Virus record (IMG/VR): IMGVR_UViG_2563366953_000006
Location: 1-42,424 of that record
Length of the DNA stretch: 42,424 nt
From: a virus
Taxonomy: Duplodnaviria; Heunggongvirae; Uroviricota; Caudoviricetes
Strand: one strand, 5' to 3'
Of the stretch, positions 40 through 41,655 are shown one piece after another (within the stretch, counting starts at the first letter, position 1; each line of letters starts with the position of its first letter). The notes under the pieces are model-generated. The model made no database searches. It was not told the origin of the DNA and saw only the letters and a list, made by a program, of their open reading frames with translations. A program made the position numbers and the translations under genes.

Positions 40-402
40 GGGGCTGATTCTGGATTCGACGGGATTTGCGAAACCCAAGGTGCATGCCGAGGGGCGGTTG
101 GCCTCGTAAAAAGCCGCAAAAAATAGTCGCAAACGACGAAAACTACGCTTTAGCAGCTTAATAACCTGCTTAGAGCCCTCTCTCCCTAGCCTCCGCTCTT
201 AGGACGGGGATCAAGAGAGGTCAAACCCAAAAGAGATCGCGTGGAAGCCCTGCCTGGGGTTGAAGCGTTAAAACTTAATCAGGCTAGTTTGTTAGTGGCG
301 TGTCCGTCCGCAGCTGGCAAGCGAATGTAAAGACTGACTAAGCATGTAGTACCGAGGACGTAGGAATTTCGGACGCGGGTTCAACTCCCGCCAGCTCCAC
401 CA
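40..402 (+). ncRNA. ssrA: tmRNA (SsrA), complete, ending in CCA
   Basis: Begins GGGGCTGATTCTGGATTCGACGGG and ends GGGTTCAACTCCCGCCAGCTCCACCA; contains the tag-peptide coding stretch GCAAACGACGAAAACTACGCTTTAGCAGCTTAA. Recognised from memory of enterobacterial ssrA (363 nt). Confidence 0.93.
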
Positions 403-539
403 ATCATGATTGGACGGTGTAAGGACAACACCAACAAAAACAGGAAGTTAGCAGTCTCAGCAGGACACCGACCAGACGGTGATGAGACAAAAAAGGATAC
501 GCAAAGGAGCCGCGGCTCTCGAGTGACACAAAAGCCCGC
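372..539. repeat. Left copy of imperfect direct repeat (attL-like): 3' end of ssrA plus about 135 bp downstream
   Basis: Near-identical to 41489..41655; includes a 36-bp perfectly shared block GGGTTCAACTCCCGCCAGCTCCACCAATCATGATTG, with scattered mismatches elsewhere. Confidence 0.8.
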
Positions 540-560
540 TTATGCGGGCTTTTTGTTTTT
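531..560 (+). terminator. Rho-independent terminator downstream of ssrA
   Basis: Hairpin GCCCGC-TTAT-GCGGGC followed by TTTTTGTTTTT. Confidence 0.6.
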
Positions 561-636
561 CCCTTAAGTTCCTAGCCGCTTATCTATAACTATGGAAAAA
601 TGTTAACCCTGACTGTATGTTAACAAAGGGATGTAT

Positions 637-1845
637 ATGTCGGTTTTTCATAACTGGCTGCTTGATATCGCAAGCGGGAATTACTTTATCTACATCAAAC
701 GCCTTTCTGCAAACGACACAGGCGCAACAGGTGGCCATCAGGTCGGACTTTATATCCCCTCAAATATCGTTGAAAAGCTTTTTCCATCTATCAATCATAC
801 TCGCGAACTGAACCCTTCAGTCTTCCTTACTGCGCATGTATCATCCCATGATTGCCCTGATACCCAAGCACGCGCAATTTATTACAACAACCGTTATTTT
901 GGTAAGACCCGAAACGAAAAAAGAATTACGCGCTGGGGGAGAGGAAGTCCATTACAGAACCCTGAAAATACAGGAGCCCTGACAATTCTTGCCTTCAGGT
1001 TAAACGAACAGAACACTGACTGTTCCGAGGTAGATATATGGGTCTGCGTCAATCCCGATGAAGAGGATATCATCGAGTCTGCTATTGGCGAAATCATACC
1101 TGGAACCCTAATTTCCGGCCCTGCCGGACAAATTTTGGGCGGATTGTCTCTTCAGCAAACTCCAGTAAATCATAAATATGTTATTCCTGAAGACTGGAAG
1201 AAGCGTTTTCCTTCTGGAAACGAAATTATTCAATATGCTGCTGGCCATTATGCTAAAAACTCCAAGGATCCAGATGAGCAACTGATTGACCGTCGGCGTG
1301 TCGAGTATGATATTTTTCTACTCGTCGAGGAATTACATGTTCTTGATATTATTAAGAAAGGATTCGATTCTGTAGATGAGTTTATTGCATTAGCCAACTC
1401 TGTCAGTAATCGACGTAAATCAAGGGCAGGTAAATCACTTGAACTTCACCTAGAGAAGCTTTTTATCGAGCACGGACTACGGCATTTCTCCACTCAGGCA
1501 GTTACTGAAGGTAATAAAAAACCAGATTTCCTGTTTCCTTCAGCAGAGGCATATCATAACGTTGAATTTCCTGTAGAAAACTTACGTATGCTGGCAGTAA
1601 AGACCACCTGCAAAGATCGCTGGCGTCAGATACTGAATGAAGCAGATAAAATCCATCAGGTACATTTATTTACGCTGCAAGAAGGTGTTTCTTCAGCACA
1701 ATACCGAGAAATGAAAGATGCGGGTGTCAGACTCGTTGTACCATCAACTTTACATAAAAAATACCCAGAAGCAGTTAGAGAAGAATTAATAACGCTCGGA
1801 GCATTCATTACTGAGCTGATAGAACTTTACGCTGAACTATCATAG
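637..1845 (+). CDS. ecoRIIR: Type IIE restriction endonuclease, EcoRII-like (CCWGG)
   Basis: Protein MSVFHNWLLDIASGNYFIYIKRLSANDTGATGGHQVGLYIPS... is near-collinear with R.EcoRII as recalled (about 400 aa). Start taken at the second ATG (637), which has better spacing from the AGGGA Shine-Dalgarno; the ORF track starts at 631. Confidence 0.8.
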   Translation: MSVFHNWLLDIASGNYFIYIKRLSANDTGATGGHQVGLYIPSNIVEKLFPSINHTRELNPSVFLTAHVSSHDCPDTQARAIYYNNRYFGKTRNEKRITRWGRGSPLQNPENTGALTILAFRLNEQNTDCSEVDIWVCVNPDEEDIIESAIGEIIPGTLISGPAGQILGGLSLQQTPVNHKYVIPEDWKKRFPSGNEIIQYAAGHYAKNSKDPDEQLIDRRRVEYDIFLLVEELHVLDIIKKGFDSVDEFIALANSVSNRRKSRAGKSLELHLEKLFIEHGLRHFSTQAVTEGNKKPDFLFPSAEAYHNVEFPVENLRMLAVKTTCKDRWRQILNEADKIHQVHLFTLQEGVSSAQYREMKDAGVRLVVPSTLHKKYPEAVREELITLGAFITELIELYAELS

Positions 1846-1879
1846 GCTGACTCCCGGCTTAAAAGGCCGGGAGGTGTTC
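1846..1879. terminator. Bidirectional hairpin between convergent R and M genes
   Basis: CTCCCGGC-TTAAAA-GGCCGGGAG inverted repeat between the two stop codons. Confidence 0.5.
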
Positions 1880-3313
1880 TCAAGGCAGCCCAGTCTTACC
1901 AGCATCAGCAGAAACAGCTTTGAGGATATAGGGTTCCAGAAGTCTGGCAACGGCTTCAAATACTGGCACCACAACGGAGTTACCGAACTGCCGATATGAC
2001 TGAGTATCTGAAACCGGAATACGGAATGGTTTCCCTCCAGGTTTTTCAAACCCCATAAGGCGTGCGCACTCTCGGGGAGTCAGCCTGCGTGGTCGACGAG
2101 CCTGGTTACTCTCATTCATAAAGTCAGCCTCTCCCGTTGCCATATCCCAACCACGATCAATAAGAATTTCTGATCCGTCTTTGTGATATCTGGCAGAAAG
2201 TGTGCGTGCAATGCTTTCCTTATTCTCAGGATTGACCAACCCAAAGCCAAAACCATTCCCCTTGGCTGCATGCTTTTTGGCGTAGTTATAAAGGTACTCC
2301 CATAGTTTTGGCGTAAGTATATATTTACTGTCGACTACAGGCTCCAGCAATTCACCAAATGATGGGCGGTGTTCCGGATAAAAACGACTGATATCACGCA
2401 AGGTAAACCCCTTGTGAATATTCAGATCTCGTCTAAATCCGACCAGAACAATGCGTTCACGATGCTGAGGCAAAAAATGCTTCCCATCGATAATCTTTGG
2501 ATCGTTTTTTCCCATTTCTGCAGCATCGGCAACTTCGTAGCCCAGCTCGTCAAGGGTCTCCATAATGACTTTGAAAGTTTTACCCTTATCATGGCTCTTC
2601 AGATTTTTGACATTTTCCAGCACAAAAATTGCCGGTTTTTTTGCTCGTATAATACGTGCCACGTCAAAAAAAAGTGTTCCTTGTGCTTCACATTCAAAAC
2701 CATGCGCACGACCAAGTGAGTTTTTCTTACTAACACCAGCAAGGCTAAATGGCTGGCACGGGAACCCCGCAAGAAGCACATCATGATCCGGCACATGCTC
2801 ATCAATATATGCATAAGCATCCGTTTCCAATACATCGGTTTTATCACTCAGCGTGACTTCCCGAATATCGAGATTGAATTTATGCACCTGTTCATCGTTA
2901 AACCAGTTGGCCTTGTATGTACGCACAGCATCTTTATTCCATTCACTGGTAAAAACACACTGGCCTCCAATGGCCTCAAAACCTTTCCGTATCCCTCCAA
3001 TTCCAGCAAATAAGTCAATGAAGCGGAAAGCATATTCCGGATGGTTTGCAGGTGGTTCTGGTAGCATCTTACGCAGAAGAGACTCTTCTACTGAAGTCAA
3101 CGATTTTGGTAAACACTTGCCATTAATCCAGCGGTTAATGGTTTCACGGCTCCACTCATTTTTTCCGACTTTTCTCAGTAATTCAGCCACATACTTCTGA
3201 TCATAGATTTCCAGCACTTTCTCGATAAGCTTTTTATCATTTTCCTGTCGCAGCTTTTCTTCCGCCTCGGCTTCCTTCAGCAGATGCTGTGCCAACACTT
3301 CAAATTCAGACAT
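1880..3313 (-). CDS. ecoRIIM: DNA cytosine-5 methyltransferase, Dcm / M.EcoRII family
   Basis: Contains [17 protein letters not shown] (motif I), [11 protein letters not shown] (PC catalytic motif), ENVKNL and [10 protein letters not shown]; collinear with Dcm/M.EcoRII. Start placed at MSEFEV (3313), preceded by GGAGG; the ORF track extends to 3355. Confidence 0.88.
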
Positions 3314-3619
3314 AATTCCTCCAAGGGGTCTAATGGGTGAAACTCTATCACTCATTCAACCCAGAAGGAAATGTTTTATCTGGATATTTAAACAGTGACT
3401 ACAACGTAATCTAGCACTGGTGATGCTTTGTTAGGCATAGAGAATCATTCTATATACGACTAATGACAGAAAAACAGCAGACAAGTAGTTTGTTCATAAA
3501 TTAACGCATACTACGTGCCTACGGTTTTCGAGACCGGTCCAATCATCAAACGAAACATAAAATTAGCTCACATTATGAGGAAAGGTATCTTTTTGCGCTA
3601 TGTAAATTCAAAGGGTTAG

Positions 3620-4489
<870 letters not shown>

Positions 4490-4546
4490 GTCTTTAAGTG
4501 ATAAGCATAAACCGCAGCACGATCTTGCATACGACGTGCTACGGTT

Positions 4547-5101
4547 TCATTTATCTCCGACCGGAAACTTCTTATACAGTGTCGATATACCAACATCATA
4601 GATGATCGCCACCTTCTGGCGAGGAACGCCTGATGCAATTAATCGCCCGGCCTGCGCCCATTGTTCTGGTGTAAGTTTGGGACGACGTCCACCAATTCGT
4701 CCCTGTGCGCGAGCAGCTTCCAGTCCAGCTTTTGTTCGTTCAACAATCAGTTCTCGTTCCATTTCAGCCAGGGCACCCATCACATGAAAGAAAAAACGCC
4801 CCATCGGTGTGCTGGTATCAATAGCATCCGTCAGGCTGCGCAAATTAACGCCACGTTCGCGCAACTCCTCAACCAGAATGACCAGATGCCGCATGCTACG
4901 CCCTAGCCGATCCAGCTTCCAGACAACCAGAGTGTCACCTGCCGATAATGTCCTGAGCAGTTTTTTCAGTCCCGGCCTTTCGGACTTTGTACCGCTTATC
5001 TTGTCTTCAAAAATCAGCTCGCATCCTGCACAGTTCAGCGCATTACGTTGTAGATCTGTGTTCTGGTCATTTGTTGACACACGTACATAGCCAATAAGCA
5101 T
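4547..5101 (-). CDS. pin: Serine DNA invertase, Gin/Pin/Cin/Hin family
   Basis: MLIGYVRVSTNDQNTDLQ...LVVWKLDRLGRSMRHL...GRIGGRRPKL is a near match to e14 Pin / Mu Gin as recalled; lies next to an invertible tail-fibre segment. Start at MLIGY (5101). Confidence 0.9.
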   Translation of the reverse strand: MLIGYVRVSTNDQNTDLQRNALNCAGCELIFEDKISGTKSERPGLKKLLRTLSAGDTLVVWKLDRLGRSMRHLVILVEELRERGVNLRSLTDAIDTSTPMGRFFFHVMGALAEMERELIVERTKAGLEAARAQGRIGGRRPKLTPEQWAQAGRLIASGVPRQKVAIIYDVGISTLYKKFPVGDK

Positions 5102-5127
5102 GGTAGATCTCCCTGACAAAAGCAGGA

Positions 5128-5541
5128 ATGATGCCATTTGCTCGTTATTTCTGCATTTTCATAAACGTTGGTTTGGGAGAAGCGGCAAAACGGGATGTAG
5201 GAACAGGGGAAAATCAGATACCGGATATGGCTTCTTTTGCCAGTGGTGATGGATGGATGAAATTACCCAACGGTAAAATCCTGCAATATGGTCGAGGTGC
5301 GGTTACGCCGACATTATCGACGCAAACAATGAGAATTACATTCAGCATCCCTTTTCCTAAAAAAGTGGACTGCGCCATGCTTACTCATTCTGGTGATGGT
5401 GGTGCACCTTTAGGTGCTGGACGGGGATTCGTGATGACCGCAGAAGGTCCAACATTAACCGGTTTTAATTCCGCTTACAGAACTGCATCAACCAGTTCCA
5501 CAGTATCGATGAATTACAGTTGGTGGGCTGTTGGTGAGTAA
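5128..5541 (+). CDS. Alternate tail-fibre C-terminal cassette (Sv'-like), silent in this orientation
   Basis: The frame continues through the crossover site (NVGLGEAAKR) so that inversion would fuse it to the constant N-terminus of the tail fibre; it has no independent promoter or RBS context. Confidence 0.6.
   Translation: MMPFARYFCIFINVGLGEAAKRDVGTGENQIPDMASFASGDGWMKLPNGKILQYGRGAVTPTLSTQTMRITFSIPFPKKVDCAMLTHSGDGGAPLGAGRGFVMTAEGPTLTGFNSAYRTASTSSTVSMNYSWWAVGE
5157..5182. repeat. Invertase crossover site (gix/pix-like), left
   Basis: TTTTCATAAACGTTGGTTTGGGAGAA; its reverse complement matches the site at 7078..7103 over TTCTCCCAAACCAA-GTTT. Confidence 0.7.
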
Positions 5542-5552
5542 TTTTATTAAGG

Positions 5553-6005
5553 GTGATTTATATGAACGAATATGTTTATAGCGCAAGGCATAATGCTTTT
5601 TTCCCTGTGGATATGATTGATAAATATAAATCAGAGGGATGGGATTTATCAGATGCTAAAGAGGTGAATCAAAATATTATCAGTGAATTTATGGCTGAAC
5701 CGCCACAAGGAAAAATCCGTATTGCCGGAGGTGATGGGCAGCCCGCGTGGGCAGATATTCCTCCACCCACGCATGAAGAACTTATTGAAATTACTGAATC
5801 AGAAAGACAGCTACTAATTAACCAGGCCAACGAATACATGAACAGTAAGCAATGGCCCGGTAAAGCCGCTATTGGTCGTCTGAAAGGTGAGGAACTGGCG
5901 CAATATAATTTGTGGCTGGATTATCTGGATGCACTGGAGCTGGTTGATACCTCCAGTGCACCAGATATTGAATGGCCTACGCCTCCGGCAGTTCAGGCCA
6001 GATGA
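5553..6005 (+). CDS. Tail-fibre assembly protein (Tfa, U'-like), alternate
   Basis: C-terminus LWLDYLDALELVDTSSAPDIEWP is the Tfa-family signature; sits inside the invertible segment on the opposite strand to its partner. Confidence 0.75.
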   Translation: MIYMNEYVYSARHNAFFPVDMIDKYKSEGWDLSDAKEVNQNIISEFMAEPPQGKIRIAGGDGQPAWADIPPPTHEELIEITESERQLLINQANEYMNSKQWPGKAAIGRLKGEELAQYNLWLDYLDALELVDTSSAPDIEWPTPPAVQAR

Positions 6006-6579
6006 CATCCGGCGCGGTGCTGGTATCTGTTGCCGTCACCGCGTCAATGTAATCCAGCACAGCGTTAAGGCTGGTTGTTTCTGCCTGCGTCAGTTTACGT
6101 CCGGCCTGCAATTTCAGCTGAATCAGACTGATTGAAGCCATTGCAGTATTAATCAGTGACTGGCGCTGTGCTTCTGCTACATCTACTGCGGCGCTATGCT
6201 GTGCTTCGGTATCCGTCACCCATTTCTCACCATCCCATTTATCGTATGGCGTTAACGGGGCGATAGTGGTTGTATTATCAGGGTAATCACCCGGAGCTGT
6301 GATTTCTTTTGATTCTCCTGTTTCGGTGCTATATACCGTTTCACCGCGATGATCTGGCACATATTCCCATGAGTTAAAATCTGCAGAACGGCAAATTGCA
6401 TAACCAGCTTTATATGAGCCAGGAGCATCTAAACAGGAACATGCCGGAATACCGACGCCAACCGCAAGATATTCAGTTGATGTGGAAATATATTCCCGCG
6501 TTTCACCATCATAATTATAAATAGTAATGTCTCCCGCTTTTATGGCAATGAGTTCGTTATTTAATACGGCTTTATTCAT
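5977..6579 (-). CDS. Tail-fibre assembly protein (Tfa, U-like), expressed orientation
   Basis: C-terminus AVLDYIDAVTATDTSTAPDVIWPELP (Tfa family); immediately downstream of the tail-fibre gene. Confidence 0.8.
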   Translation of the reverse strand: MNKAVLNNELIAIKAGDITIYNYDGETREYISTSTEYLAVGVGIPACSCLDAPGSYKAGYAICRSADFNSWEYVPDHRGETVYSTETGESKEITAPGDYPDNTTTIAPLTPYDKWDGEKWVTDTEAQHSAAVDVAEAQRQSLINTAMASISLIQLKLQAGRKLTQAETTSLNAVLDYIDAVTATDTSTAPDVIWPELPEA

Positions 6580-7379
6580 CAGGCAGCCCTCACGATATAA
6601 TTAAAGGCAATGTTACGAGGACGGTTTTCGTTTGCAGTTGGAACAATTCTTGAAGCATCAAGGCCAATCACTTTTGGGTAAACACCGCCCTCGGACCTTT
6701 CTGTCACCATACTTCTGACTAAGGAGAAATAACTATTGTTCGTTGAGGGGTTCAAAGGCACTACTGCCCCCTTAAACGAGCCTACTGATTCCCATATTGA
6801 ATAATTTTCGGTGTTTACAGTCTTGAACTCACCATAGATATTACGTATGGCATCGCCCTGAGCTGATAATATTGCCCTCCCCGTATCCATACCACGTCCG
6901 TCATCCCAGCCACGAATAAACTCACCACGTAAATCAGGCAATTTATTTGTCGGATAAGCCTTTGCCAGTTCCGGGTATTCTTCAGCAGAAAAAGCCGCGC
7001 CGTTGCATTTCAGCCAGCCTGTTGGCGGAGTGGCGGAAGGCCATGGAACAGGGACACCAACGGGTAATGCAGAGCCTTCTCCCAAACCAAGGTTTTCGAG
7101 AGCCGTTTTCACCGTGCCATCCGATTTGATATCGCTAAACGGATTCTTGCGGCTTAACAGCAGCGCACGAAGCGCGGTAAGCAGCTGGTCATGCCGCCCC
7201 TTCTCCAGGCTGGCACCGGATGCCTCCACAACGCTGCAAAGCTCCTCCTGCAACATGTCAAAGTAGTCATCATCCAGATCGGTGGCAGGCGTGCCGGTCT
7301 GGGGGTTACCACGGGTAAAACCGTTCTTACCCGCGCCGAACTTATCCTTCTGCGCGGTTTTCGTGTCTATACGATGCAT
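6579..7379 (-). CDS. Tail fibre protein (constant N-terminal part plus variable collar-type C-terminus, S-like)
   Basis: Lies between the DUF2313 baseplate gene and Tfa; C-terminal region [24 protein letters not shown] resembles the phage tail-collar domain; the crossover site is at codons ~93-100. Confidence 0.8.
7078..7103. repeat. Invertase crossover site (gix/pix-like), right, inside the tail-fibre gene
   Basis: TTCTCCCAAACCAAGGTTTTCGAGAG, inverted relative to 5157..5182; both sites encode the peptide GLGE in their respective reading frames. Confidence 0.7.
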
Positions 7380-7382
7380 GGA

Positions 7383-12380: not shown

Positions 12381-12394
12381 ATAAACTCCGTACA

Positions 12395-12417
12395 TAAAAA
12401 ATCCCACCGGAGTGGGA
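12395..12417 (-). terminator. Intra-operon hairpin/attenuator between the tape-measure and N genes
   Basis: Minus-strand CCCACTCCGGTGGG followed by ATTTTTT. Confidence 0.4.
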
Positions 12418-12440
12418 CTCATTAACAGATTAATTTTTCA

Positions 12441-27192: not shown

Positions 27193-28134
27193 ATGAGTAC
27201 AGAAAATAAGAATAAAACCAGGCGAGTGAGAGTTGGTTTTTTCACTGGTAATGGAAGCAAAAAAGATGGCACATCTGCTGCAAAACTAGCCTTTGAGCAA
27301 ATGACCACAGCAGATACTGTAACTTTTCCAATAACTTACACAACAGACACCCCAAATCGAGGGTTAAAGTTAGTTATTCTTCAAAAAGATACCACACTGC
27401 AATGTTACTTTGGTTACGTATCGTGGAGAAGGGAATGCCTACTACCGTTCATCGAGGATGCTACAGGTAGTGAGAGAACAATTCCTTTAAATGATAAAGA
27501 TTCTGTAGTTGAAAGAACATATTTTATCTATTACTACGAAACGGACTTATTAGCTATGACCCTCAACCATATAGGGCCCAAAGTAAATGATCTGGCATTC
27601 ATTTTGTATAACAAAACTGATTTAAAAAGCGTCACTTTTGAAGCCATTTGGAAACAAGAGAGCATGAAGGAACTGCTTGAGGACGGAAATATCCTACGTA
27701 GTTTCGATCTTATAGTTGCTGCTCCAAGAAACTTTAACAAAGCTAATTATAAGATTAAAAACCCTTTAGCTAATGAAATTATTGACATGGTTGTTGGTAT
27801 GGGCGGGTCGCATCTAAGATTAAATATGCGAGGTCGGATTCGCCCGAAAAAACAAGGGTTTAACTATCTAAAAACTTCTGTCACCGATGCTATTAAGGAA
27901 CTACTTGAACTTTTTCCAAAAGGTTCTGGAGGTCTAAAAATTAAAAAAATTGATGTAACAGAGCCATCCAATAGAACGCCCAAAAGTCTACTTGACCAAG
28001 TATTGGTCAGTACAAAGACAATCATTGTCAAAAGCGGTTATCCATCCGATTCTGATATCAGAACGGCGATGATATCTGCTAAAATTGATAACGCGAACTA
28101 TCTTGCACAGTATGAGCTCGCTAGCAGAGACTAA
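27193..28134 (+). CDS. Hypothetical 313-aa soluble protein, first gene of an AT-rich two-gene cassette (candidate defence/abortive-infection sensor)
   Basis: ORF on the strand opposite to all late genes, in the Q-to-lysis moron position; no Walker A motif and no recognised domain; followed 9 bp later by a 4-TM protein gene. Confidence 0.65.
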   Translation: MSTENKNKTRRVRVGFFTGNGSKKDGTSAAKLAFEQMTTADTVTFPITYTTDTPNRGLKLVILQKDTTLQCYFGYVSWRRECLLPFIEDATGSERTIPLNDKDSVVERTYFIYYYETDLLAMTLNHIGPKVNDLAFILYNKTDLKSVTFEAIWKQESMKELLEDGNILRSFDLIVAAPRNFNKANYKIKNPLANEIIDMVVGMGGSHLRLNMRGRIRPKKQGFNYLKTSVTDAIKELLELFPKGSGGLKIKKIDVTEPSNRTPKSLLDQVLVSTKTIIVKSGYPSDSDIRTAMISAKIDNANYLAQYELASRD

Positions 28135-28155
28135 TAACCAAGCATGGAGGACACA

Positions 28156-28605
28156 ATGAGAGAATTAGCCACTTTTCTCTGGAAATGCGTCCTCTGGATT
28201 CTGTTGACCTATGCAGCGACAAAACTGTTTAAACCGATGAAGCATGCTGACGTACTCACAACAGCGGGGGTGCTCTCGACTATATCAGGCATCCTGTTTG
28301 GTTTTGTTCTGGCTGCAATATCTATATTTAGTAGTGCAAACAGCGATAAGGAAGGAGCAATTAATGCCCTTAAGCAAAACAACGTGTTACCAACTCTGGT
28401 AAATAGATTACTTTCAACAGGGTTAACTCTCATCGTCGCATGTATATTTCCATTGATAGCGATGTTTCTACCTGATGATGTTATTGTTGCGGGCAAACCT
28501 ATTGATTTCCTGTTCATACTGTTAGGCTTATCCTCCCTTATAATTTCGCTATATACCTTCGGAAGGTGTTGGTTAGTGTTACGAAAAATCTTCCCCCACT
28601 TGTGA
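28156..28605 (+). CDS. Small polytopic membrane protein (4 predicted TM helices), second gene of the cassette (candidate membrane effector)
   Basis: Four hydrophobic stretches (res ~8-27, 38-62, 88-108, 120-146 of the 153-aa track ORF); start placed at MRELATF (28156), preceded by GGAGG; track start is 28144. Confidence 0.65.
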   Translation: MRELATFLWKCVLWILLTYAATKLFKPMKHADVLTTAGVLSTISGILFGFVLAAISIFSSANSDKEGAINALKQNNVLPTLVNRLLSTGLTLIVACIFPLIAMFLPDDVIVAGKPIDFLFILLGLSSLIISLYTFGRCWLVLRKIFPHL

Positions 28606-30019: not shown

Positions 30020-30020
30020 C

Positions 30021-30818: not shown

Positions 30819-30837
30819 ACTTCGTTTCTCCTCTTAA

Positions 30838-32200: not shown

Positions 32201-32694
32201 TAAGCCCCCACGTAATTCCCTGACAGATACCACTCATCACCCGATACAGCGCGCTTGCTGCTTTTCCGTAAACACTGCTCACGACGCGCCAGAAAATTGT
32301 TTCGTTCTGGCTGGGAGTGGCTTTCACGGAATGCCGCCATCCACACCGTTGCAGCACGACGGTATAAGCCCCTGGACTCCAGTTCTTCAGCCTGGCGGGT
32401 CAGGCACAAAATCACCCGGGGGTCGTTAGTGCCGACATAGAAATTGCGCACAGCTCTGGTTTCACGAACAGATTGTGGTTCCGGCTCCTGCGCTCTCTCA
32501 GTCAGGCGCGGGAAATGTCTGCGTGTATCTCCTTCACAACGGTGAGCCACACGCCCACTCTGACGTAACTTGCTTGCTGACTGCAGAACGCGCTGCCGTG
32601 AGTAACCAGCAAAAGCATCCGCAATGTCTCCGGAAGTACACCCCGGATGGGCTTCAATGAATTTCTGAACTTCATTCAAAAGACTCATAATCAC
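32200..32694 (-). CDS. Hypothetical protein, possibly PerC-like regulator
   Basis: 164 aa, translationally coupled to both neighbours; weak recalled resemblance to PerC family (ELESRGLYRRAATVW). Confidence 0.35.
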   Translation of the reverse strand: MIMSLLNEVQKFIEAHPGCTSGDIADAFAGYSRQRVLQSASKLRQSGRVAHRCEGDTRRHFPRLTERAQEPEPQSVRETRAVRNFYVGTNDPRVILCLTRQAEELESRGLYRRAATVWMAAFRESHSQPERNNFLARREQCLRKSSKRAVSGDEWYLSGNYVGA

Positions 32695-33632
32695 CCCCTG
32701 AATCCTGCCGGGATCTGGCTGTAGTCCACGTTGTCGTAACTGGCTTTGAAGTACGGGTCTTCGCGTTTTTCTGTGTGCGTGCTGACGGACGGCGATAAGC
32801 GCAGGGAAAGCTCATCCCATTTTTCCCGCAACTTCGACGGGCTGAGCACGTTACGGCACCAGAACGGATCGCGGCTGACGCGGCTGTACATCTCGCAGAT
32901 TTGTTTGTGAGTACGACCATCCTGCACACACATCAGGCGAATTTCGTTTGCCCAGGCTGTCCAGTTAGGTTCTTTGGGACGAACCACCTCGCCGTCACAT
33001 TCGGCGGCCTGCTCGTACAGGGCGATGATTTTTTTCCAGAGCCACTGTGCGCAGGTCAAATCATCCTGCGTTCCCCACTGGCGCTTTTTAGGGCTGAATA
33101 CAACCGCATCAGGATGGCGAGTTAAAAAATCCTGTTCATCCGTCTGCGTGTCCGGTTGCGAAGCGTCCGGACGAGAAGTTTTTTTATCTGATGGATCATG
33201 TTTTGATTTTACTGACGGATCCCCGCCAGATTCTGACGGGTGAAAACCCGCTTTTTTGCCAGATTTCGACGCATCAAATTTTGACGGGTCAGATTTTGAT
33301 GCGTCAGATTTTGACGGGTCAGAATCTGACAGTTGAGAAAATGCCGCTGCCTGAAGCTTCGCAACGTTAAGCTGATAAACATTCGACGCATTGCGGTTAC
33401 CCTGGCGACGCGCCTTACGCGTTAACCAGCCTTCTGCTTCCAGCCGTGCGATAGCCGTTCTGACGGTACTCATCCCCGCGCCAATCTGGCGTGCAATGGT
33501 TTCAATTGATGGCCAGCACACACCTTCGTCATTACTGAAATCAGCCAGGCGGGCCATAATTGCCACGCTGGATAACTTCATGCCTGACGCAGCGCAACCA
33601 TCCCATACATAGCCGGTTAATTTAGTGCTCAT
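32691..33632 (-). CDS. Replication initiator (O-like), N-terminal HTH with internal low-complexity repeat encoded by iterons
   Basis: N-terminal HTH-like region WPSIETIARQIGAGMSTVRTAIARLEAEGWLTR; central SDSDPSKSDASKSDPSKFDASKS repeat coincides with DNA direct repeats. Confidence 0.65.
   Translation of the reverse strand: MSTKLTGYVWDGCAASGMKLSSVAIMARLADFSNDEGVCWPSIETIARQIGAGMSTVRTAIARLEAEGWLTRKARRQGNRNASNVYQLNVAKLQAAAFSQLSDSDPSKSDASKSDPSKFDASKSGKKAGFHPSESGGDPSVKSKHDPSDKKTSRPDASQPDTQTDEQDFLTRHPDAVVFSPKKRQWGTQDDLTCAQWLWKKIIALYEQAAECDGEVVRPKEPNWTAWANEIRLMCVQDGRTHKQICEMYSRVSRDPFWCRNVLSPSKLREKWDELSLRLSPSVSTHTEKREDPYFKASYDNVDYSQIPAGFRG
33200..33335. repeat. Iteron-like direct repeats (candidate replication origin) inside the initiator gene
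   Basis: Repeated units of the form GATTTTGACGGGTCAGA / GATTTTGATGCGTCAGA, at least 4-6 copies. Confidence 0.6.
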
Positions 33633-33641
33633 GACCGACCT

Positions 33642-34787: not shown

Positions 34788-34884
34788 ATGCCCTCCAAAT
34801 ATTGCGCGTTATGCATGTTATTTCACGCAATTATTTTGCGCAAGTTGATTTGCTTATCACGCAATAAAGAAATGTAATAAACGC
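34788..34884. promoter_or_regulatory. Immunity-region operator/promoter region between divergent cro and cI
   Basis: Repeated half-sites TTGCGCG / TCACGCAA / TTGCGCAA / TCACGCAA forming inverted-repeat operators within a 97-bp AT-rich intergenic region. Confidence 0.6.
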
Positions 34885-35577
34885 ATGAACATAGGAAACC
34901 GAGTCAGACAACTTCGCCAAGCGAAGAACATGAAAATCGCCGATCTCGCTGAAGCGATAGGAGTAGATGCGGCGAACATCTCGCGCTTAGAAACGGGTAA
35001 GCAAAAACAATTTACCGAACAAACACTGAGTAATATTGCCAAGAGCTTAGGTGTTGATATTGCTGATCTCTTTACCTCTGCCCACAAAAGTAATACTGTA
35101 TATAAAAACAGTAATAATGAGGATGTTGCGCAGGTGAAGGATGTGTTCCGTATTGAAATGCTGGATATCAGTGCCAGTGCGGGAAATGGCCTTATCCAGG
35201 GCGGTGATGTCATTGATGTGATTCATGCCATCGAATACAGAACTGATAATGCTGTATCAATGTTCGGCGGACGACCAGCCAATCACATCAAAGTTATCAA
35301 CGTTCGTGGGGACAGTATGTGTCCAACCATTGAGCCAGGAGATCTCATCTTCGTTGATGTCAGCATCAATCAGTTTGATGGTGATGGTATATATGTCTTT
35401 GGTTTTGATGATAAAATATACGTTAAAAGACTTCAAATGATTCCTGACAAACTGCTGGTGATTTCTGATAACCAGATTTACCGTGAATGGGGAATTACTA
35501 GCGAAAACGAACACCGATTCATGGTCTTTGGAAAGGTCTTAATCAGTCAGTCGCAAACCCTTAAGAGACATAATTAA
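34885..35577 (+). CDS. CI-like repressor (N-terminal HTH plus C-terminal S24 LexA-like peptidase)
   Basis: HTH at N-terminus (IADLAEAIGVDAANISRLETGK); C-terminal VRGDSMCPTIEPGDLIFVD...YVKRL carries the Ser/Lys dyad. Confidence 0.88.
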   Translation: MNIGNRVRQLRQAKNMKIADLAEAIGVDAANISRLETGKQKQFTEQTLSNIAKSLGVDIADLFTSAHKSNTVYKNSNNEDVAQVKDVFRIEMLDISASAGNGLIQGGDVIDVIHAIEYRTDNAVSMFGGRPANHIKVINVRGDSMCPTIEPGDLIFVDVSINQFDGDGIYVFGFDDKIYVKRLQMIPDKLLVISDNQIYREWGITSENEHRFMVFGKVLISQSQTLKRHN

Positions 35578-35594
35578 CCTCAATATCCCATCCA

Positions 35595-35622
35595 TCGGCC
35601 ACCGAAAGGTGGCTTTTTATTA
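35595..35622 (+). terminator. Rho-independent terminator after cI
   Basis: GGCCACCGAAAGGTGGC followed by TTTTTATT. Confidence 0.6.
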
Positions 35623-35629
35623 CCTATAA

Positions 35630-35670
35630 ATTTGCATATCTCGCAAATATCACTTGCATATCTCGCAATT
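35630..35670. promoter_or_regulatory. Tandem 15-bp direct repeats (candidate operator/promoter for the plus-strand early operon)
   Basis: TTGCATATCTCGCAA occurs twice, 9 bp apart, just downstream of the cI terminator. Confidence 0.45.
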
Positions 35671-35875
35671 TAATTTTATCTTTTGTTCCAGACCAACTAC
35701 AGGATTACAACAAAATCTGGTTGCAACACGGTGCATGTGTCGTAAGCAGTCAGTAAATGTCAAAAACGAACAGGCAGGACGCCCACGAAGTAGCCGCCTG
35801 GGGCATATGAAGTCCAGGATGATTCGTTGAGTCATGTTGTGCCACTAGGCACTCATGTTAAAGCAGGTGTATGAA

Positions 35876-36151
35876 ATGAAAGTCCAGATTTTAAACAATA
35901 ACTGTGAAGTCGTTTGGTCATACGACATAGCCGCCCCTGTAGATCAGAGCGGCGATAGCTGGACCAATGGGAAACATCAGATTATGGCTGGAGTTGTGTT
36001 CTCTTTACGCCGTGCTTTGGAACAGGCTGAAGTATTTCCATCAGACCCTGAATGGAAATGGCCTTTTTCTATTTGTCCAAATTCGGAGAGCACATTTCAG
36101 AAAATTGGTCAGAAAGTCGCACTCGAAGAGCATCAGCCAACTGTTTCCTGA
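35876..36151 (+). CDS. Hypothetical small protein (early plus-strand operon)
   Basis: Start at MKVQIL with AGGTG 7 nt upstream; overlaps a convergent minus-strand ORF so only one may be real. Confidence 0.3.
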   Translation: MKVQILNNNCEVVWSYDIAAPVDQSGDSWTNGKHQIMAGVVFSLRRALEQAEVFPSDPEWKWPFSICPNSESTFQKIGQKVALEEHQPTVS

Positions 36152-36314
36152 TTTTTTCAGGTAACTCGTCGGCATCGCAGAAACAACAACGCTCGATCAT
36201 GTTGAAAGCCGATTCGTAGAACTGTTTCTGCTGAGTGTCGCTGAGACAGGAAAAGAGCGACGTTACGATGATTTTATTAATTGCATTATCAAGTTCTTTT
36301 TCATCAAAAGTCAT
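36069..36314 (-). CDS. Hypothetical small acidic protein
   Basis: 81-aa ORF with AAGGA RBS-like sequence 8 nt upstream; overlaps the 3' end of the plus-strand ORF. Confidence 0.3.
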   Translation of the reverse strand: MTFDEKELDNAINKIIVTSLFSCLSDTQQKQFYESAFNMIERCCFCDADELPEKIRKQLADALRVRLSDQFSEMCSPNLDK

Positions 36315-36419
36315 TTGATTTTCCTTTTATGTATACGGGCTTAAAAGGATACCACCGAGCCTGAAGTGGTGAAAAGACAGGCACATAACAGCTAAGTATT
36401 TTCAACCAGAGAGAATCCT

Positions 36420-36745
36420 TAGCGTTGTGGTGAATGCGGCTCAGCGCACGCGGGTTAAGGTTGAGGCTGACAGTCGACCTTCTGTGGATACCCACCCGCC
36501 TGGTGTGCAACCTTCGCCAGGCACCGGGAGGCACCCGGCACCACAACTTTATGCTGTGTGTAGTCCTGGCGGTACCAGTTTGTACCCTTGCTTCCGGCTG
36601 GTACCGTCCTTTTTTGCAAAACAGAGAAGAGCATCACCGGACGACGGGCTCATAACCCAATCCATCCGGGCGGCTGCCACCGCAGGTGTTCTTCTCTGTT
36701 TTGTGGAGAAACCAACCGACCTTGCAGGGTCGATATGATGAGGAG
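36420..36745. other. GC-rich structured non-coding region (candidate ncRNA or regulatory site)
   Basis: No convincing ORF; 14-bp perfect inverted repeat CAAAACAGAGAAGA (36617..36630) / TCTTCTCTGTTTTG (36690..36703) plus CGGTACCAG/CTGGTACCG and other short palindromes. Confidence 0.4.
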
Positions 36746-36752
36746 CAGCAAA

Positions 36753-37115
36753 ATGGCTAGCGAACGCAGTACTGATGTGCAGGCATTTATCGGGGAGCTG
36801 GACGGCGGCGTATTTGAAACCAAAATCGGCGCAGTTCTCAGTGAGGTCGCTTCCGGTGTGATGAACACGAAAACCAAAGGGAAGGTCTCACTCAATCTGG
36901 AAATCGAACCGTTTGATGAGAACCGTGTGAAAATCAAACACAAACTCTCATATGTTCGCCCAACTAACCGCGGGAAAATTTCCGAAGAAGACACCACCGA
37001 AACGCCGATGTATGTCAATCGCGGTGGTCGCCTGACTATTCTGCAGGAAGACCAGGGACAATTACTGACTCTTGCCGGTGCACCTGACGGAAAACTCCGC
37101 GCAGCAGGTCATTAA
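36753..37115 (+). CDS. Hypothetical prophage protein, YfdP-like
   Basis: Start at MASERSTDV with GAGGAG upstream; followed by YfdQ/YfdR/YfdS-like genes in the CPS-53 order as recalled. Confidence 0.45.
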   Translation: MASERSTDVQAFIGELDGGVFETKIGAVLSEVASGVMNTKTKGKVSLNLEIEPFDENRVKIKHKLSYVRPTNRGKISEEDTTETPMYVNRGGRLTILQEDQGQLLTLAGAPDGKLRAAGH

Positions 37116-37179
37116 TATCGTTTTTAATTAACTGATTATTTATCTCATCACTGAATATTTTATATAGTGAGGACTTATT

Positions 37180-38004
37180 ATGTCTCAGAACTTAGACGTA
37201 ACCGCAATTAATCAAATCCATGCCCTTATTTCTGCTCAGGGTGTTAATGAAATTATCAGTAAGATTGGTGCCGATGCTGTGGCATTGCCTGAGAATTTCC
37301 GCATTCATGATCTGGAAAAATTTAATTTAAATCGTTTCCGTTTCCGTGGTGCGCTTTCCACTGCCAGCATCGATGACTTTACCCGTTATTCTAAAGATCT
37401 TGCAGATGAAGGCACCCGCTGCTTTATCGATGCCGATAATATGCGTGCCGTCAGTGTGCTTAACCTGGGTACTATTGATGAACCAGGTCACGCAGATAAC
37501 ACCGCCACTCTCAAACTGAAAAAGACAGCACCGTTCTCTGCTCTGTTGTCTGTTAATGGCGAGCGTAACTCCCAGAAATCACTGGCAGAATGGATTGAAG
37601 ACTGGGCCGACTACCTTGTGGGCTTTGATGCTAATGGTGACACCATTCAGGCAACAAAAGCGGCTGCGGCGGTCCGTAAAATCACGATTGAAGCAAACCA
37701 GACTGCTGATTTTGAAGATAATGACTTCAGCGGCAAACGCTCCCTGATGGAGTCTGTCGAAGCGAAGACCAAAGACATTATGCCAGTGGCATTTGAGTTT
37801 AAATGCGTTCCGTTTGAAGGTCTGAAAGAACGTCCGTTTAAATTACGCCTCAGCATTATCACTGGCGATCGTCCGGTACTGGTTCTGCGCATTATTCAGT
37901 TGGAAGCGGTGCAGGAAGATATGGCTAACGAATTTCGTGATCTGCTTGTTGAGAAATTCAAGGACAGCAAAGTAGAAACCTTTATTGGGACTTTCACCGC
38001 CTGA
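37180..38004 (+). CDS. Hypothetical prophage protein, YfdQ-like (DUF2303)
   Basis: 274 aa, same length and operon position as YfdQ of the CPS-53 prophage; identity not verified. Confidence 0.5.
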
Positions 38005-38132
38005 TTTCATTACTGCAAATGCCCCTGCGGGGGCATTTATGGAAACGTAATTGACTCAATAATCGCCTGAAGGCGAGGGTTTTCTTTAACCAAAATTCAG
38101 CGCGGTGCAGCGCATATAACGTGGAGAACAAA

Positions 38133-38669
38133 ATGTCATTTATTAAAACTTTTTCCGGGAAGCATTTTTATTATGACAGGATAAATAAAGACAACATCGA
38201 TATTAACGATATCGCGGTTTCCCTTTCAAATATCTGTCGCTTTGCCGGCCATCTTTCACACTTCTACAGCGTCGCCCAACATGCGGTGCTTTGCAGCCAG
38301 CTGGTACCGCAGGAATTTGCTTTTGAAGCGTTAATGCATGATGCAACAGAAGCGTATTGCCAGGACATCCCGGCTCCACTGAAACGCCTTCTTCCTGACT
38401 ATAAACGGATGGAAGAAAAAATAGACGCCGTAATCCGTGAGAAATACGGGTTACCCCCGGTTATGAGTACACCCGTGAAATATGCCGATCTCATCATGCT
38501 GGCAACCGAGCGCCGCGATCTCGGGCTTGATGATGGCTCTTTCTGGCCTGTGCTGGAAGGTATCCCGGCAACAGAGATGTTCAACGTGATTCCACTGGCT
38601 CCAGGCCATGCCTACGGGATGTTTATGGAACGCTTTAACGAATTATCGGAGTTACGCAAATGCGCATAA
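38133..38669 (+). CDS. HD-domain phosphohydrolase, YfdR-like
   Basis: H..HDATE pattern (HAVLCSQL...ALMHDATEAYCQDIP) typical of HD-domain nucleotidases; start at MSFIKTF with GGAG upstream. Confidence 0.6.
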   Translation: MSFIKTFSGKHFYYDRINKDNIDINDIAVSLSNICRFAGHLSHFYSVAQHAVLCSQLVPQEFAFEALMHDATEAYCQDIPAPLKRLLPDYKRMEEKIDAVIREKYGLPPVMSTPVKYADLIMLATERRDLGLDDGSFWPVLEGIPATEMFNVIPLAPGHAYGMFMERFNELSELRKCA

Positions 38670-39022
38670 ATGTTTTCGAAATGGAAGGGTTTCTTCGCGG
38701 GAAATGTGTACCGCAAGATCTGAAAGTGAACGAAACAAATGCTGAGTACCTGGTACGTAAATTCGACGCGCTTGAAGCTAAATGTGCGGCACTGGAAAGC
38801 AAAATAATACCAGTGTCAGCTGAACTGCCACCAGCAAATGAAAGTGTTCTGTTATTTGATGCTAACGGAGAAGGCTGGCTGATTGGCTGGCGTTCTCTCT
38901 GGTACACCTGGGGACAAAAAGAAACCGGAGAATGGCAGTGGACATTTCAGGTCGGGGACCTTGAAAACGTCAATATCACTCACTGGGCAGTAATGCCGAA
39001 AGCACCAGAGACTAAGAAATGA
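38660..39022 (+). CDS. Hypothetical prophage protein, YfdS-like
   Basis: 120 aa, overlaps the upstream gene stop; order matches the CPS-53-like block. Confidence 0.45.
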   Translation: MRINVFEMEGFLRGKCVPQDLKVNETNAEYLVRKFDALEAKCAALESKIIPVSAELPPANESVLLFDANGEGWLIGWRSLWYTWGQKETGEWQWTFQVGDLENVNITHWAVMPKAPETKK

Positions 39023-39234
39023 GCGTGATAAAAACTCATACAGGAATTGTTATCACCCGAGACGGTGAAAAGCGGATGAAATTACATTCCACTGAAACGT
39101 CCTGGGTTGCCGGACGTTGTGAATCCTACGACAAAAAGACTGGTTACCGTTGGGGGGCACCTAACATGCGTCGCCGTCTGCTACTGGACAGCATCAGGCC
39201 AATAAAACAGGTAGCAACCAGGGAACAAAATTAA
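39019..39234 (+). CDS. Hypothetical small protein
   Basis: 71 aa, ATGA-coupled to the upstream gene. Confidence 0.4.
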   Translation: MSVIKTHTGIVITRDGEKRMKLHSTETSWVAGRCESYDKKTGYRWGAPNMRRRLLLDSIRPIKQVATREQN

Positions 39235-39293
39235 TTATCAGGACTGGAATTTGATATTACTGCCCGTGTGCAGCGGGCTAAGTGGAGAAACAT

Positions 39294-39500
39294 ATGCTGA
39301 ACCTCGATTGTGTTCCAATCTCAACTTATTGCAAAGAAACTGGCGAAACTCCTGAAGCAATAAACAAACGTGTACAGCGCGGTGTTTGGCGTGAAGGTGT
39401 TCAGGTTTTAAAGGTTGAAGGCGTTAAGGAGAGGTGGATTGATCTTAGTGAGGTTGCAAAATGGGCCAGACAAAACTGCTCAAACTACCGCGCGGCGTAA
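39294..39500 (+). CDS. Excisionase-like protein (Xis)
   Basis: 68-aa protein immediately upstream of and overlapping the integrase; the EAINKRVQRGVWREGVQ segment resembles lambda Xis ETVRRWVRE; GGAG RBS. Confidence 0.5.
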   Translation: MLNLDCVPISTYCKETGETPEAINKRVQRGVWREGVQVLKVEGVKERWIDLSEVAKWARQNCSNYRAA

Positions 39501-40633
39501 CAATCAGGAAACACCGCCTGGGCGAAACGATCAATATAACTTTCACCTATAAAGGAGTTAAATGTCGTGAGCCTCTTTCCAATCTGGAAGTAATACCAAA
39601 GAACATAAAATACGCCGAGCGCACACTCGGCGAAATTCATAATAAGATCGAAAGGGGAACATTCATTTATGCGGAATATTTTCCCCGTTCTGCTCGTTTG
39701 AAAATTTTTGGTAATGCTGCTGCAGGCAAAACGGTAAAAATGTACCTGGACGAATACCTTGAAATCTGCGAAACGAGAAAACTTTCACCCTCTACGATTG
39801 GTGGTTATAAAAAATGCCGTAGTGCGTTAGCCTCACTCCACATTTGCCCTGCAAGTGAATTAACACCAGCAATCCTGAAAGCGTGGATTCAAAGCCAGAA
39901 AACGACCTTAAAAACAATTCGCAACCAGTTATCTTTCCTGCGGTCAGCACTTGATGAAGCCGTAACCGATGGGGTACTTCAAATTAACCCCGTATCGTTG
40001 GTAACTGCTTCGCGCTACCAAAGTGATAAGTCAGAAGCAGAAAGCAGCTACGTGGTTGATCCGCTATCACCAGCAGAAGTTGATGCATTACTAGCAGCAG
40101 CCGGAAACAAACAATGGGAAAATCTGTTCCGGTTCGCTATACATACAGGCCTGCGTAGTTCTGAATTATGTGCCCTTCGATGGCGTGATATCGACTTTGT
40201 TGGAAAAACTGCCCATGTCCAGAGCGCAAGTGTTGTCGGTGTTATCAAAGGGACAAAGACAAAAGCAGGTACTCGGAAAGTTGAACTGACAGAAGAGGCA
40301 ATGTTGGCGCTGATAAATCAGAAGCCATTTACATTCATGAAGGATGCTACTGTCTTTGAAGATCCAAAGACCAATAAGCCTTGGGCAAGTGCTGATGCAA
40401 TTAGGAAAAAAGCATGGGTGCCAACATTGCGAAAAGCAGGTATTCGTTACAGAAACCCATATCAAACCAGGCATACATTCGCCACCAGCCATATCAGCCG
40501 AGGAGCAAACCTGTTTTGGCTTGCAGCTCAAATGGGGCATAAAGGGCCGGAGATGCTTTTCAGGCACTATGGTTCGTATCTTAAAGAGTATGATAACTTT
40601 ACATCGATAAATCATTTGCATAATCATAATTAA
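39461..40633 (+). CDS. Tyrosine site-specific integrase (phage integrase family)
   Basis: 390 aa; C-terminal catalytic residues in TGLRSSELCALRW..., YQTRHTFAT and MGHKGPEMLFRHYGSYL (R...H..R...Y); adjacent to the right repeat. Confidence 0.9.
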   Translation: MGQTKLLKLPRGVTIRKHRLGETINITFTYKGVKCREPLSNLEVIPKNIKYAERTLGEIHNKIERGTFIYAEYFPRSARLKIFGNAAAGKTVKMYLDEYLEICETRKLSPSTIGGYKKCRSALASLHICPASELTPAILKAWIQSQKTTLKTIRNQLSFLRSALDEAVTDGVLQINPVSLVTASRYQSDKSEAESSYVVDPLSPAEVDALLAAAGNKQWENLFRFAIHTGLRSSELCALRWRDIDFVGKTAHVQSASVVGVIKGTKTKAGTRKVELTEEAMLALINQKPFTFMKDATVFEDPKTNKPWASADAIRKKAWVPTLRKAGIRYRNPYQTRHTFATSHISRGANLFWLAAQMGHKGPEMLFRHYGSYLKEYDNFTSINHLHNHN

Positions 40634-40640
40634 TATTTAA

Positions 40641-40670
40641 TAATCCCCGCATTTTTAAAATCGGGGATTT
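40641..40670 (+). terminator. Hairpin downstream of int (possible terminator or int-binding arm site)
   Basis: ATCCCCG-CATTTTTAAAAT-CGGGGAT inverted repeat. Confidence 0.35.
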
Positions 40671-40674
40671 AAAG

Positions 40675-41454
40675 TTGATTACAATTACATTCGACAAACT
40701 AATCACCTACATATCTTCAGTTGGTACTTTCATTTCAGCAATTGCTGCATTATATGCAATATGGTTAACGATATTTCAAAGAAGGCTCTCTTATAAACCC
40801 AATTTAGTGATAGACACTTTAAATGTCAAGATGAATGTTAACGATTTCAACGGTTTTCATGTTGATATCTTACAAGCCCCTACGCTTCCACAAACAAAAT
40901 TTTCAAACATAGGATTGGGGGCGGCAATTTCACTTAGATATCATTGGGATTTTAATTATAAAAAAAACATAAATCTATACTTAGAGTTGTTTTCGAAAAA
41001 ATTCAAAAAAGAAGATAAATCTTTTACAACCGACTCCCAGTATGGAATGTTCAAAATAATAAAAGAAAGAAAAGTATATATGTACAATACTTTATCGACA
41101 CCTTACGATATTGATTTTTCGTTACCATATAGTATAGATAAGAAGTCAAAAAACATTTTTGTACCAACCGCGGCAATTGATATTCTATTGAATATAGCAT
41201 ATCTTTCACATAGACTTAAATTAGTCGGTTCTTCATCATTCACTGGTCCAAAATTAATTATTGAATATCAAGATATAGAGGGTAAAACTAAAAAAGTCAC
41301 TTGGCAAACAAAATTGGAACGTGGAGTGGCACGTTTCAGTGGTGATAATATGGAGGCAGATTTTGCACTACGGTTTACACCTGTACCAGAGAAATGGACT
41401 ACAAAAGGTCTAGAGAAGATACGCAAAAGCGCCGCAAACGCCATGTTCAGATAA
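40675..41454 (+). CDS. AT-rich cargo gene: hypothetical 259-aa protein with N-terminal TM anchor
   Basis: Lies between int and the right repeat; very AT-rich; apparent TTG start; N-terminal hydrophobic helix ITYISSVGTFISAIAALYAIWLTIF; no recognised domain. Confidence 0.5.
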   Translation: MITITFDKLITYISSVGTFISAIAALYAIWLTIFQRRLSYKPNLVIDTLNVKMNVNDFNGFHVDILQAPTLPQTKFSNIGLGAAISLRYHWDFNYKKNINLYLELFSKKFKKEDKSFTTDSQYGMFKIIKERKVYMYNTLSTPYDIDFSLPYSIDKKSKNIFVPTAAIDILLNIAYLSHRLKLVGSSSFTGPKLIIEYQDIEGKTKKVTWQTKLERGVARFSGDNMEADFALRFTPVPEKWTTKGLEKIRKSAANAMFR

Positions 41455-41488
41455 ATATATAATTAAAACAACAGGTTAATATTTTTCA

Positions 41489-41655
41489 GACACGGGTTCA
41501 ACTCCCGCCAGCTCCACCAATCATGATTGAACGGTGCAAGGACAACACCAACAAAAACAGGAAGTTAGAAGTCTCAGCAAGACACCGACCAGACGGTGAG
41601 GAGACAAAAAAGGATACGCAAAGGAGCCGCGGCTCCTGGTGACATGAAAGCCCAC
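41489..41655. repeat. Right copy of imperfect direct repeat (attR-like), carrying a partial duplicate of the ssrA 3' end
   Basis: Direct repeat of 372..539 with about 10 mismatches; lies just downstream of the integrase and the AT-rich cargo gene. Confidence 0.8.

Follow-up and report, generated by a model that had tools for sequence, protein, structure and literature searches.

A temperate prophage in Escherichia coli ssrA whose long imperfect flanking repeats probably represent attP/attB homology beyond the crossover

The attP of Haemophilus phage HP1 contains a 182-bp identity spanning tRNA genes. Attachment (att) sites that restore the tRNA or transfer-messenger RNA (tmRNA) gene used as the integration target are a known class (Campbell 1992; Islander, PMC4383910), and here we analyze such a site in a 42,424-nt stretch of viral DNA from an E. 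coli host (IMG/VR record IMGVR_UViG_2563366953_000006, positions 1 to 42,424; hereafter the window), in which a prophage occupies the tmRNA gene ssrA. As at HP1 and other gene-restoring sites, homology with attP reaches far past the crossover, the RNA gene is regenerated and a displaced gene fragment marks the other end; in the window, by contrast, the homologous copies are not identical, and most of their length falls beyond the gene. The att architecture is of a known kind at a well-known hotspot, and the prophage is present in hundreds of sequenced E. coli genomes. We consider it very likely that the window holds one intact temperate prophage of ~41 kb in ssrA, and that the long imperfect repeat around it is attP/attB homology continuing past the crossover.

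The closest analogy is e14/phage 21 at icd, where the element carries its own imperfect copy of well over 100 bp that replaces the 3' end of the target gene, and excision swaps the alleles (PMC13626634; Hill et al. 1989 cited therein). The prophage there, as here, ends up between long imperfect direct repeats, icdC being the replacement copy at its flank, and the phage-borne homologue in the window likewise runs >100 bp past the crossover. The targets differ: icd is protein-coding and its copy codon-constrained, whereas the target in the window is an RNA gene with a non-coding trailer and terminator. The closest relative is Escherichia phage LLS (PQ299149; Genome Res 2025, PMC12315714), whose published description mentions 29 bp of identity with ssrA and nothing of the extended imperfect homology. 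LLS has the same layout of excisionase gene (xis), integrase gene (int), an open reading frame (ORF) of unknown function, and an attP with an ssrA 3' pseudogene and trailer. It is a lambda-like siphovirus with other cargo beside attP, whereas the tail of the window prophage is contractile and its cargo includes EcoRII and PD-T4-3. The same gene is also the target of CP4-57, a P4-like cryptic prophage of K-12, and there too the native trailer has been moved to the attR of the element, beside ypjA. The CP4-57 integrase is ~17% identical to that of LLS (PMC12315714), and the CP4-57 attR pseudo-copy lacks T357, in agreement with PMC10107115. Its attL arm is unrelated, comprising a short hairpin and a terminator of its own (class AAATTCTCCATCGGTG...), and hence CP4-57 has no long repeat; CP4-57 excision damages ssrA, whereas excision of the window prophage should restore the wild type.

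In the window, ssrA is intact and regenerated at attL (40–402, plus strand); it was identified with ARAGORN, which gives the tag peptide ANDENYALAA, and with Rfam, where RF00023 scores 292.8 bits across the full model. The left copy of the repeat (attL, 367–537) joins the ssrA 3' end (367–402) to a phage-borne copy of the ssrA trailer, and the right copy (attR, 41484–41653) consists of a displaced, phage-derived ssrA 3' fragment (41484–41519) followed by the native chromosomal trailer. Local alignment of the two gives 170 columns plus one 1-nt gap, with 159 identical positions (93.5%), and a repeat search pairs 367–518 with 41484–41635 at 95% identity. The mismatches fall, in left coordinates, at 371, 375, 413, 420, 452, 463, 483, 521, 522, 529 and 530, leaving a longest perfect block of 37 bp (376–412 / 41493–41529), to the right of which imperfect homology extends for ~125–145 nt at ~92% identity. 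Right of the repeat itself, weaker similarity runs on to the boundary of an insertion sequence (IS) at 41662/41663. The repeat does not arise by chance: the 26-nt ssrA 3' end, with up to 3 mismatches allowed, is found in exactly 2 copies in the window and in 0 copies in 100 shuffles. An earlier note, made from the letters of the window alone, had described a single prophage at ssrA with long imperfect att-derived direct repeats and similarity well past the ssrA 3' end. Both points hold, with a full ssrA at attL and just 36 nt of the repeat inside the gene against ~135 nt beyond it. The note had also named a 36-bp perfect block as the likely crossover core; the block is indeed the lone long perfect one and the crossover interval, but its length is 37 bp.

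To bound the crossover, the window was set against the attB of strain ECA64 and the attL and attR of strain R12. In attR, the mismatches of phage type (41488 and 41492) lie to the left of the perfect block, and in attL phage-type bases begin at 413 and continue rightward; the crossover of the integrase (Int) is therefore confined to 376–412. The first ~9 nt of the right repeat, which are not present in empty sites, are phage-derived. Within the block, the 7-nt T-loop TTCAACT (380–386), flanked by the inverted halves of the T-stem, is most likely the Int overlap region, because such integrases reportedly prefer symmetric tRNA stem-loops.

Comparison with other lysogens and with a free phage shows that the left-hand tail is phage-borne. 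Strain R12 carries the same prophage (98.8% identity, the best match) in a different chromosomal context; its attL tail is that of the window, and its attR tail is a different host allele beside glaH. Apart from single-nucleotide polymorphisms, the tail after 412 is the same in other lysogens (R12 L005, L002; IMG/VR L064, L079, L089), whatever the host flank. In free phage LLS, xis, int, the ORF and an ssrA pseudogene of 39 bp are contiguous with a terminator-bearing homologue of the trailer (~150 bp), and this attP region matches window 364–554 at 91% over 191 bp. By BLASTP, the integrase of the window is 86% identical to LLS Int, and the ORFs beside attP (LLS gene 31 and its counterpart) are 26% identical. 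Of the two origins that the earlier note had offered for the extra similarity, a long attP homology arm is thus the one upheld, by the R12 attL tail that matches the window and by the LLS attP that is contiguous with a trailer homologue.

Aberrant excision is the classical route by which phages gain flanking host DNA, and an E. ruysiae genome has a trailer that matches the first ~120 nt of the arm almost exactly. Both facts would suit a single recent event in which imprecise excision captured host DNA, yielding a variant of the specialised-transducing type peculiar to this prophage. Such an event is very improbable, since the ssrA–EcoRII junction occurs in 259 genomes with the same arm fixed in all of them, and homologous arms are present in free phage LLS and in many IMG/VR contigs. 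The arm also differs by 6–10% from the trailers of most E. coli hosts, and hence any capture must be old.

The right-hand tail, as the following comparisons show, is the native right neighbor of ssrA, displaced by elements entering that gene. Six complete prophage-free E. coli genomes, ECA64 among them, have the order smpB–ssrA–trailer–IS4 element–ypjA and match window 41484–42424 at 99.2–99.6%. In-silico excision (window 1–412 joined to 41530–42424, 1307 bp) agrees with the ECA64 empty site at 1302 of 1307 positions, with 5 mismatches and no gaps; comparison with an empty ssrA locus was a check that the earlier note had proposed. That note had held that related genomes with the right-hand repeat and without the prophage would speak against an att site; the right-hand tail does stand beside ssrA in the six prophage-free genomes, but this is no argument against an att site, since any attB looks so. 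More widely, of 5426 complete E. coli genomes, 4215 contain the ~150-bp trailer, with a median of one copy and in most cases 90–95% identity to the phage copy. K-12 has one copy only, 20 kb from ssrA at the far end of CP4-57, where it abuts the 3' end of ypjA; in O157 the trailer lies at the far end of an island other than CP4-57; and in E. whittamii its neighbors are an intact ssrA on one side and the core genes glaH/lhgO on the other. Outside Escherichia, the trailer is followed by element genes, encoding a phage tail protein in Leclercia (L017) and an integrase in K. indica (L010), and these two copies may themselves be element-borne.

The native character of this tail bears on the second origin named in the earlier note, sequential or tandem integration, according to which an older, related element at ssrA was subsequently truncated, the right repeat would be what survives of its left arm, and the IS would be a sign of its decay. 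In favor, ssrA is a hotspot for integration, up to 4 trailer copies are present in some E. coli genomes, and tandem arrays exist elsewhere (IMG/VR L038, L064 and L089). The window itself, though, has only 2 ssrA 3' copies and no second integrase, and the interval from attR to the IS holds neither an integrase nor a phage remnant. The right tail is an ordinary native trailer of the kind found beside core genes in E. whittamii, and a clean 10-bp duplication flanks the IS in ECA64, after which come the remaining half of the terminator and ypjA. We therefore give sequential integration scarcely any weight. As regards the arrays, in L038, L064 and L089 the trailer arm with its EcoRII junction is preceded by the pseudo-ssrA head of another element (TTGCATACGACGTGGCTGCGGTTTCAAC) and not by ssrA, which suggests that a second element later entered the ssrA regenerated at attL.

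The IS belongs to the IS4 family and is cut by the window end (41663–42424, minus strand; end CAATGCCGTTCACTTAAG; transposase ORF 41672–42424, DDE_Tnp_1), so that the window holds its left ~760 bp only. The left copy of its target duplication, CACAGATGTG (41653–41662), lies inside the native ssrA terminator hairpin GCCCACAGATGTGGGC. A full copy in ECA64 (99.6% identical DNA; NCBIfam transpos_IS4_1, 261.8 bits versus a cut-off of 115) is 1430 bp long, with 18-nt inverted repeats CAATGCCGTTCACTTAAG / CTTAACTGATCGGCATTG that are identical at 15 of 18 positions. There the 10-bp target duplication CACAGATGTG is found on both sides (L001 6170–6179 and 7610–7619), and past the IS come the other half of the terminator and then ypjA; in K-12 and O157 the native terminator is intact. 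The earlier note had correctly recognized an IS4-family transposase beyond the right repeat. Its further suggestion of a decayed neighboring island does not stand, and with the 10-bp duplication in ECA64 the IS is best described as a simple insertion. Since the IS splits the native terminator, the non-lysogenic form would have a split ssrA terminator, and the lysogen an intact, phage-supplied one at 530–553. In ATCC 8739 the same IS lies in another GC-rich hairpin, between copM and silE, with an 11-bp duplication. In E. albertii the IS appears to have entered the same ssrA terminator independently. Across these loci (L001 6170–7619, L008 2500–3960, L009) the targets of the element are GC-rich, terminator-like hairpins, and the 10–11-bp duplications fall in the hairpin.

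Integration may be pictured as follows. The tyrosine integrase and excisionase of the phage, together with host factors, would insert it at the T-arm/acceptor region of ssrA, with strand exchange within the 37-bp identical block, probably at the T-loop. attP would supply a replacement for the last ~26–36 nt of ssrA, along with a homologue of the native ~150-nt trailer that includes an intrinsic terminator. ssrA would in this way be completed at attL within a 3' context close to the native one, an intact terminator separating it from the restriction-enzyme gene that follows closely, and the original 3' fragment with the native trailer would be pushed 41 kb away to attR, where the native terminator has been split separately by an IS4-family element with a preference for GC-rich hairpins. 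Xis-aided excision should give back wild-type ssrA, as the block contains none of the attR mismatches.

Turning to the arm itself, the phage-borne homologue of the native ssrA 3' trailer (403–558, plus strand) is predicted to form four hairpins, the last an intrinsic terminator that a terminator scan places at a stem at 530–553 followed by a T-run. Its fold has an energy of -46.8 kcal/mol (z = -2.88). The terminator hairpins of the phage and native copies differ by compensatory changes (GCCCGC/GCGGGC versus GCCCAC/GTGGGC), and the pairing kept in this way between phage and host copies suggests that the replaced segment stays functional. Among 70 distinct trailer copies, 97.5% of the cells at paired positions can pair, as against ~45% in slid controls, 8 pairs carry changes in both partners, and 0 of 500 shuffles attain these values. 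A covariance-model alignment of 30 copies that include divergent relatives gives 25 of 31 pairs with double changes and 88.7% of cells pairing; this alignment follows the structure of the model, a procedure that is biased toward pairing. One of the trailer samples came from a scan of genome contigs with a single exact 23-base pattern and is biased toward conservation of the second and third hairpins (H2/H3). In one hairpin the loop is kept and the stem varies: CACCG-ACCAGA-CGGTG in the window, CTCTG-ACCAGA-CAGAG in PhiR12_1 and GGTG-ACCGGA-CACC in L166. Compensatory changes in the native trailer can also be followed across ~100 copies (L003, L005, L006, L007, L146, L159, L166 and others), with versions in several phage lineages.

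Searches for a known identity of the trailer gave little. In Rfam, the gathering threshold was passed by tmRNA alone, and permissive hits to 403–600 were all sub-threshold and centered on the terminator region. A literature search on the native pre-tmRNA trailer returned nothing relevant, and no conserved ORF was found in the trailer. A peptide starting at ATG 406 was considered and set aside, as its frame, read from the alignments, is closed in K-12 after 27 codons and in the Klebsiella/Leclercia variants after 4. Trailer homologues occur with integrases only distantly related to that of the window: phage Ayreon has one without an ssrA fragment, together with an integrase of ~32% local identity, and may integrate within the trailer, and the two carriers Ayreon and the K. 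indica island have integrases with 22–32% local identity. When ssrA 3' ends in viral contigs were sampled without bias, every one of the main recurring downstream-arm classes had a hairpin and T-run within ~40–150 nt, judged by eye to be terminator-like.

These data can be read in terms of recombination, with the arm kept as a P' arm holding Int arm-type, IHF or Xis sites, or as a RecA substrate for integration, excision or allele exchange, and with host trailers repeatedly "painted" by phage arms when crossovers fall inside the long homology. Int has an arm-binding domain, hence arm-type sites must exist near attP; the int side leaves just ~30 bp from the stop of the ORF (41454) to the core; and the trailer contains a direct repeat, GACGGTGnnnGGAC/GAGACAA, 62 bp apart. 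A 170-bp repeat at 94% would be long enough for RecA-dependent deletion, the long icd/icdC att repeats of e14 give chimeric excision products (PMC13626634), and the trailers of Leclercia L017 and K. indica L010, which precede phage or island genes, may be element-borne. Against this, hairpins that covary with their pairing kept are not predicted by protein-binding sites, and carriers with 22–32% integrases (Ayreon and the K. indica island) are not expected to share arm-type sites. We hold recombination to be an unlikely reason for keeping the arm, though one with more in its favor than either sequential integration or a one-off capture; it is not exclusive of, and indeed is compatible with, our explanation of the repeat as attP/attB homology.

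That explanation leaves the selective reason for the phage to keep the trailer as a matter of inference. That the phage copies a functional host RNA context is plausible but unproven. More specifically, and only tentatively, the ~125-nt segment from the CCA to the terminator could be a structured RNA element, conserved at the enterobacterial ssrA locus and so far undescribed, that has been copied by phages, with three covarying hairpins and a terminator, one hairpin having a nearly invariant ACCAGA/ACCGGA loop, and with a spread over several phage lineages whose integrases are distantly related. If the trailer is functional, whether in 3' processing or stability of pre-tmRNA or as a regulatory RNA like the tRNA 3'ETS sponges, this would explain its preservation by phages, and the long repeat would then be a signature of functional mimicry and not a by-product. 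A covarying trailer that has no Rfam family and is common to many ssrA-targeting phages is the only part of the locus that could open a new question.

Several observations weigh against the account given above. CP4-57-type and P2-type elements rebuild ssrA with short arms unrelated to the trailer; together with the lone, distant trailer of K-12, these arms indicate that tmRNA can function without a long copy of the trailer. The interval that bounds the crossover is 37 bp long, and the exact point within that block is probable rather than fixed. The attP of this very phage is a putative one, reconstructed from attL and attR and backed by its relative LLS. Finally, the sequence beyond the IS is modeled on ECA64, and the closest prophage-bearing match to the window is 98.8% identical.

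For annotation, the true ends of the prophage are set by the crossover in 376–412 / 41493–41529, and the gene adjoining ssrA is EcoRII cargo and not an integrase. An integrase had at first been expected of this ORF (631–1845), the Pfam domains of which show EcoRII. A further caution is that long att repeats at ssrA need not imply tandem islands.

Between the repeats lies one complete prophage, measuring 41,117 bp from repeat start to repeat start. It is temperate and has lambdoid regulation, a contractile tail and e14-like ymf genes (ymfL, ymfQ and ymfR are of e14 type, and the R12 prophage has several such genes). The prophage body (5977–39234), delimited from ORFs and from the Prokaryotic Genome Annotation Pipeline (PGAP) annotation of the R12 prophage (98.8%), comprises modules for tail fibers, a contractile tail, an HK97-type head, a P27-family terminase, lysis and a Q antiterminator, in addition to replication genes, a CI/Cro-type immunity region and yfdP/Q/R-like early genes. 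The ORFs for terminase, portal, capsid, sheath, tape measure, baseplate, lysis, Q, replication and repressor are uninterrupted, in agreement with the R12 annotation, and this full set of phage modules makes the prophage potentially active.

The recombination genes are grouped at the right end, where the end of int is 850 bp from attR. The excisionase gene (39282–39500, plus strand; phrog_2917, E = 1.6e-45) overlaps the start of int (39461–40633, plus strand), which encodes a tyrosine integrase with an arm-binding domain (Pfam Arm-DNA-bind_2, Phage_int_SAM_5 and Phage_integrase). Between int and attR lies the 259-aa ORF (40675–41454, plus strand; phrog_7259, and LLS gene 31 by BLASTP), which stops 30 bp short of the right repeat and had no match in Pfam and PADLOC searches. 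Its product has a hydrophobic N-terminus, and its position between int and attP is conserved in LLS (L006 2665–3480).

The attL-proximal end carries defense cargo (631–4489) with a GC content of ~0.44, compared with 0.55 in the structural genes. An EcoRII-type endonuclease gene (631–1845, plus strand; Pfam EcoRII-N and EcoRII-C) is followed by the C5-cytosine methyltransferase gene of the same EcoRII-type restriction–modification cargo (1880–3355, minus strand; Pfam DNA_methylase and DNA_meth_N), both in accord with the PGAP annotation of related genomes, and by the anti-phage defense gene PD-T4-3 (GIY-YIG; 3665–4489, plus strand; PADLOC PDLC04031, E = 2.9e-140; Pfam LEM-3_GIY-YIG). Next to the tail-fiber genes is a gene for a Pin-type serine invertase (4547–5137, minus strand; Pfam Resolvase and HTH_7), called pinE in the R12 annotation. 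The placement of this invertase beside oppositely oriented tail-fiber and assembly ORFs (4547–6600) suggests host-range switching by inversion, and in the R12 annotation the tail-fiber assembly genes are fragmented in the matching region.

Two further features of the prophage body may be mentioned. Between the Q gene and the lysis genes (27193–28605), two plus-strand ORFs (27193–28134, 313 aa; 28144–28605, 153 aa) are oriented against their neighbors and occupy a stretch of low GC content (0.39) that looks like a moron; they belong to phrog_7651 and phrog_8552, respectively, both of unknown function, and had no match in Pfam and PADLOC searches. The O-like replication initiator gene (32691–33632, minus strand; assigned by PHROG) contains, at 33260–33334, five tandem 15-bp units (CAGATTTTGACGGGT-like), which are probably origin iterons, as in lambdoid phages.

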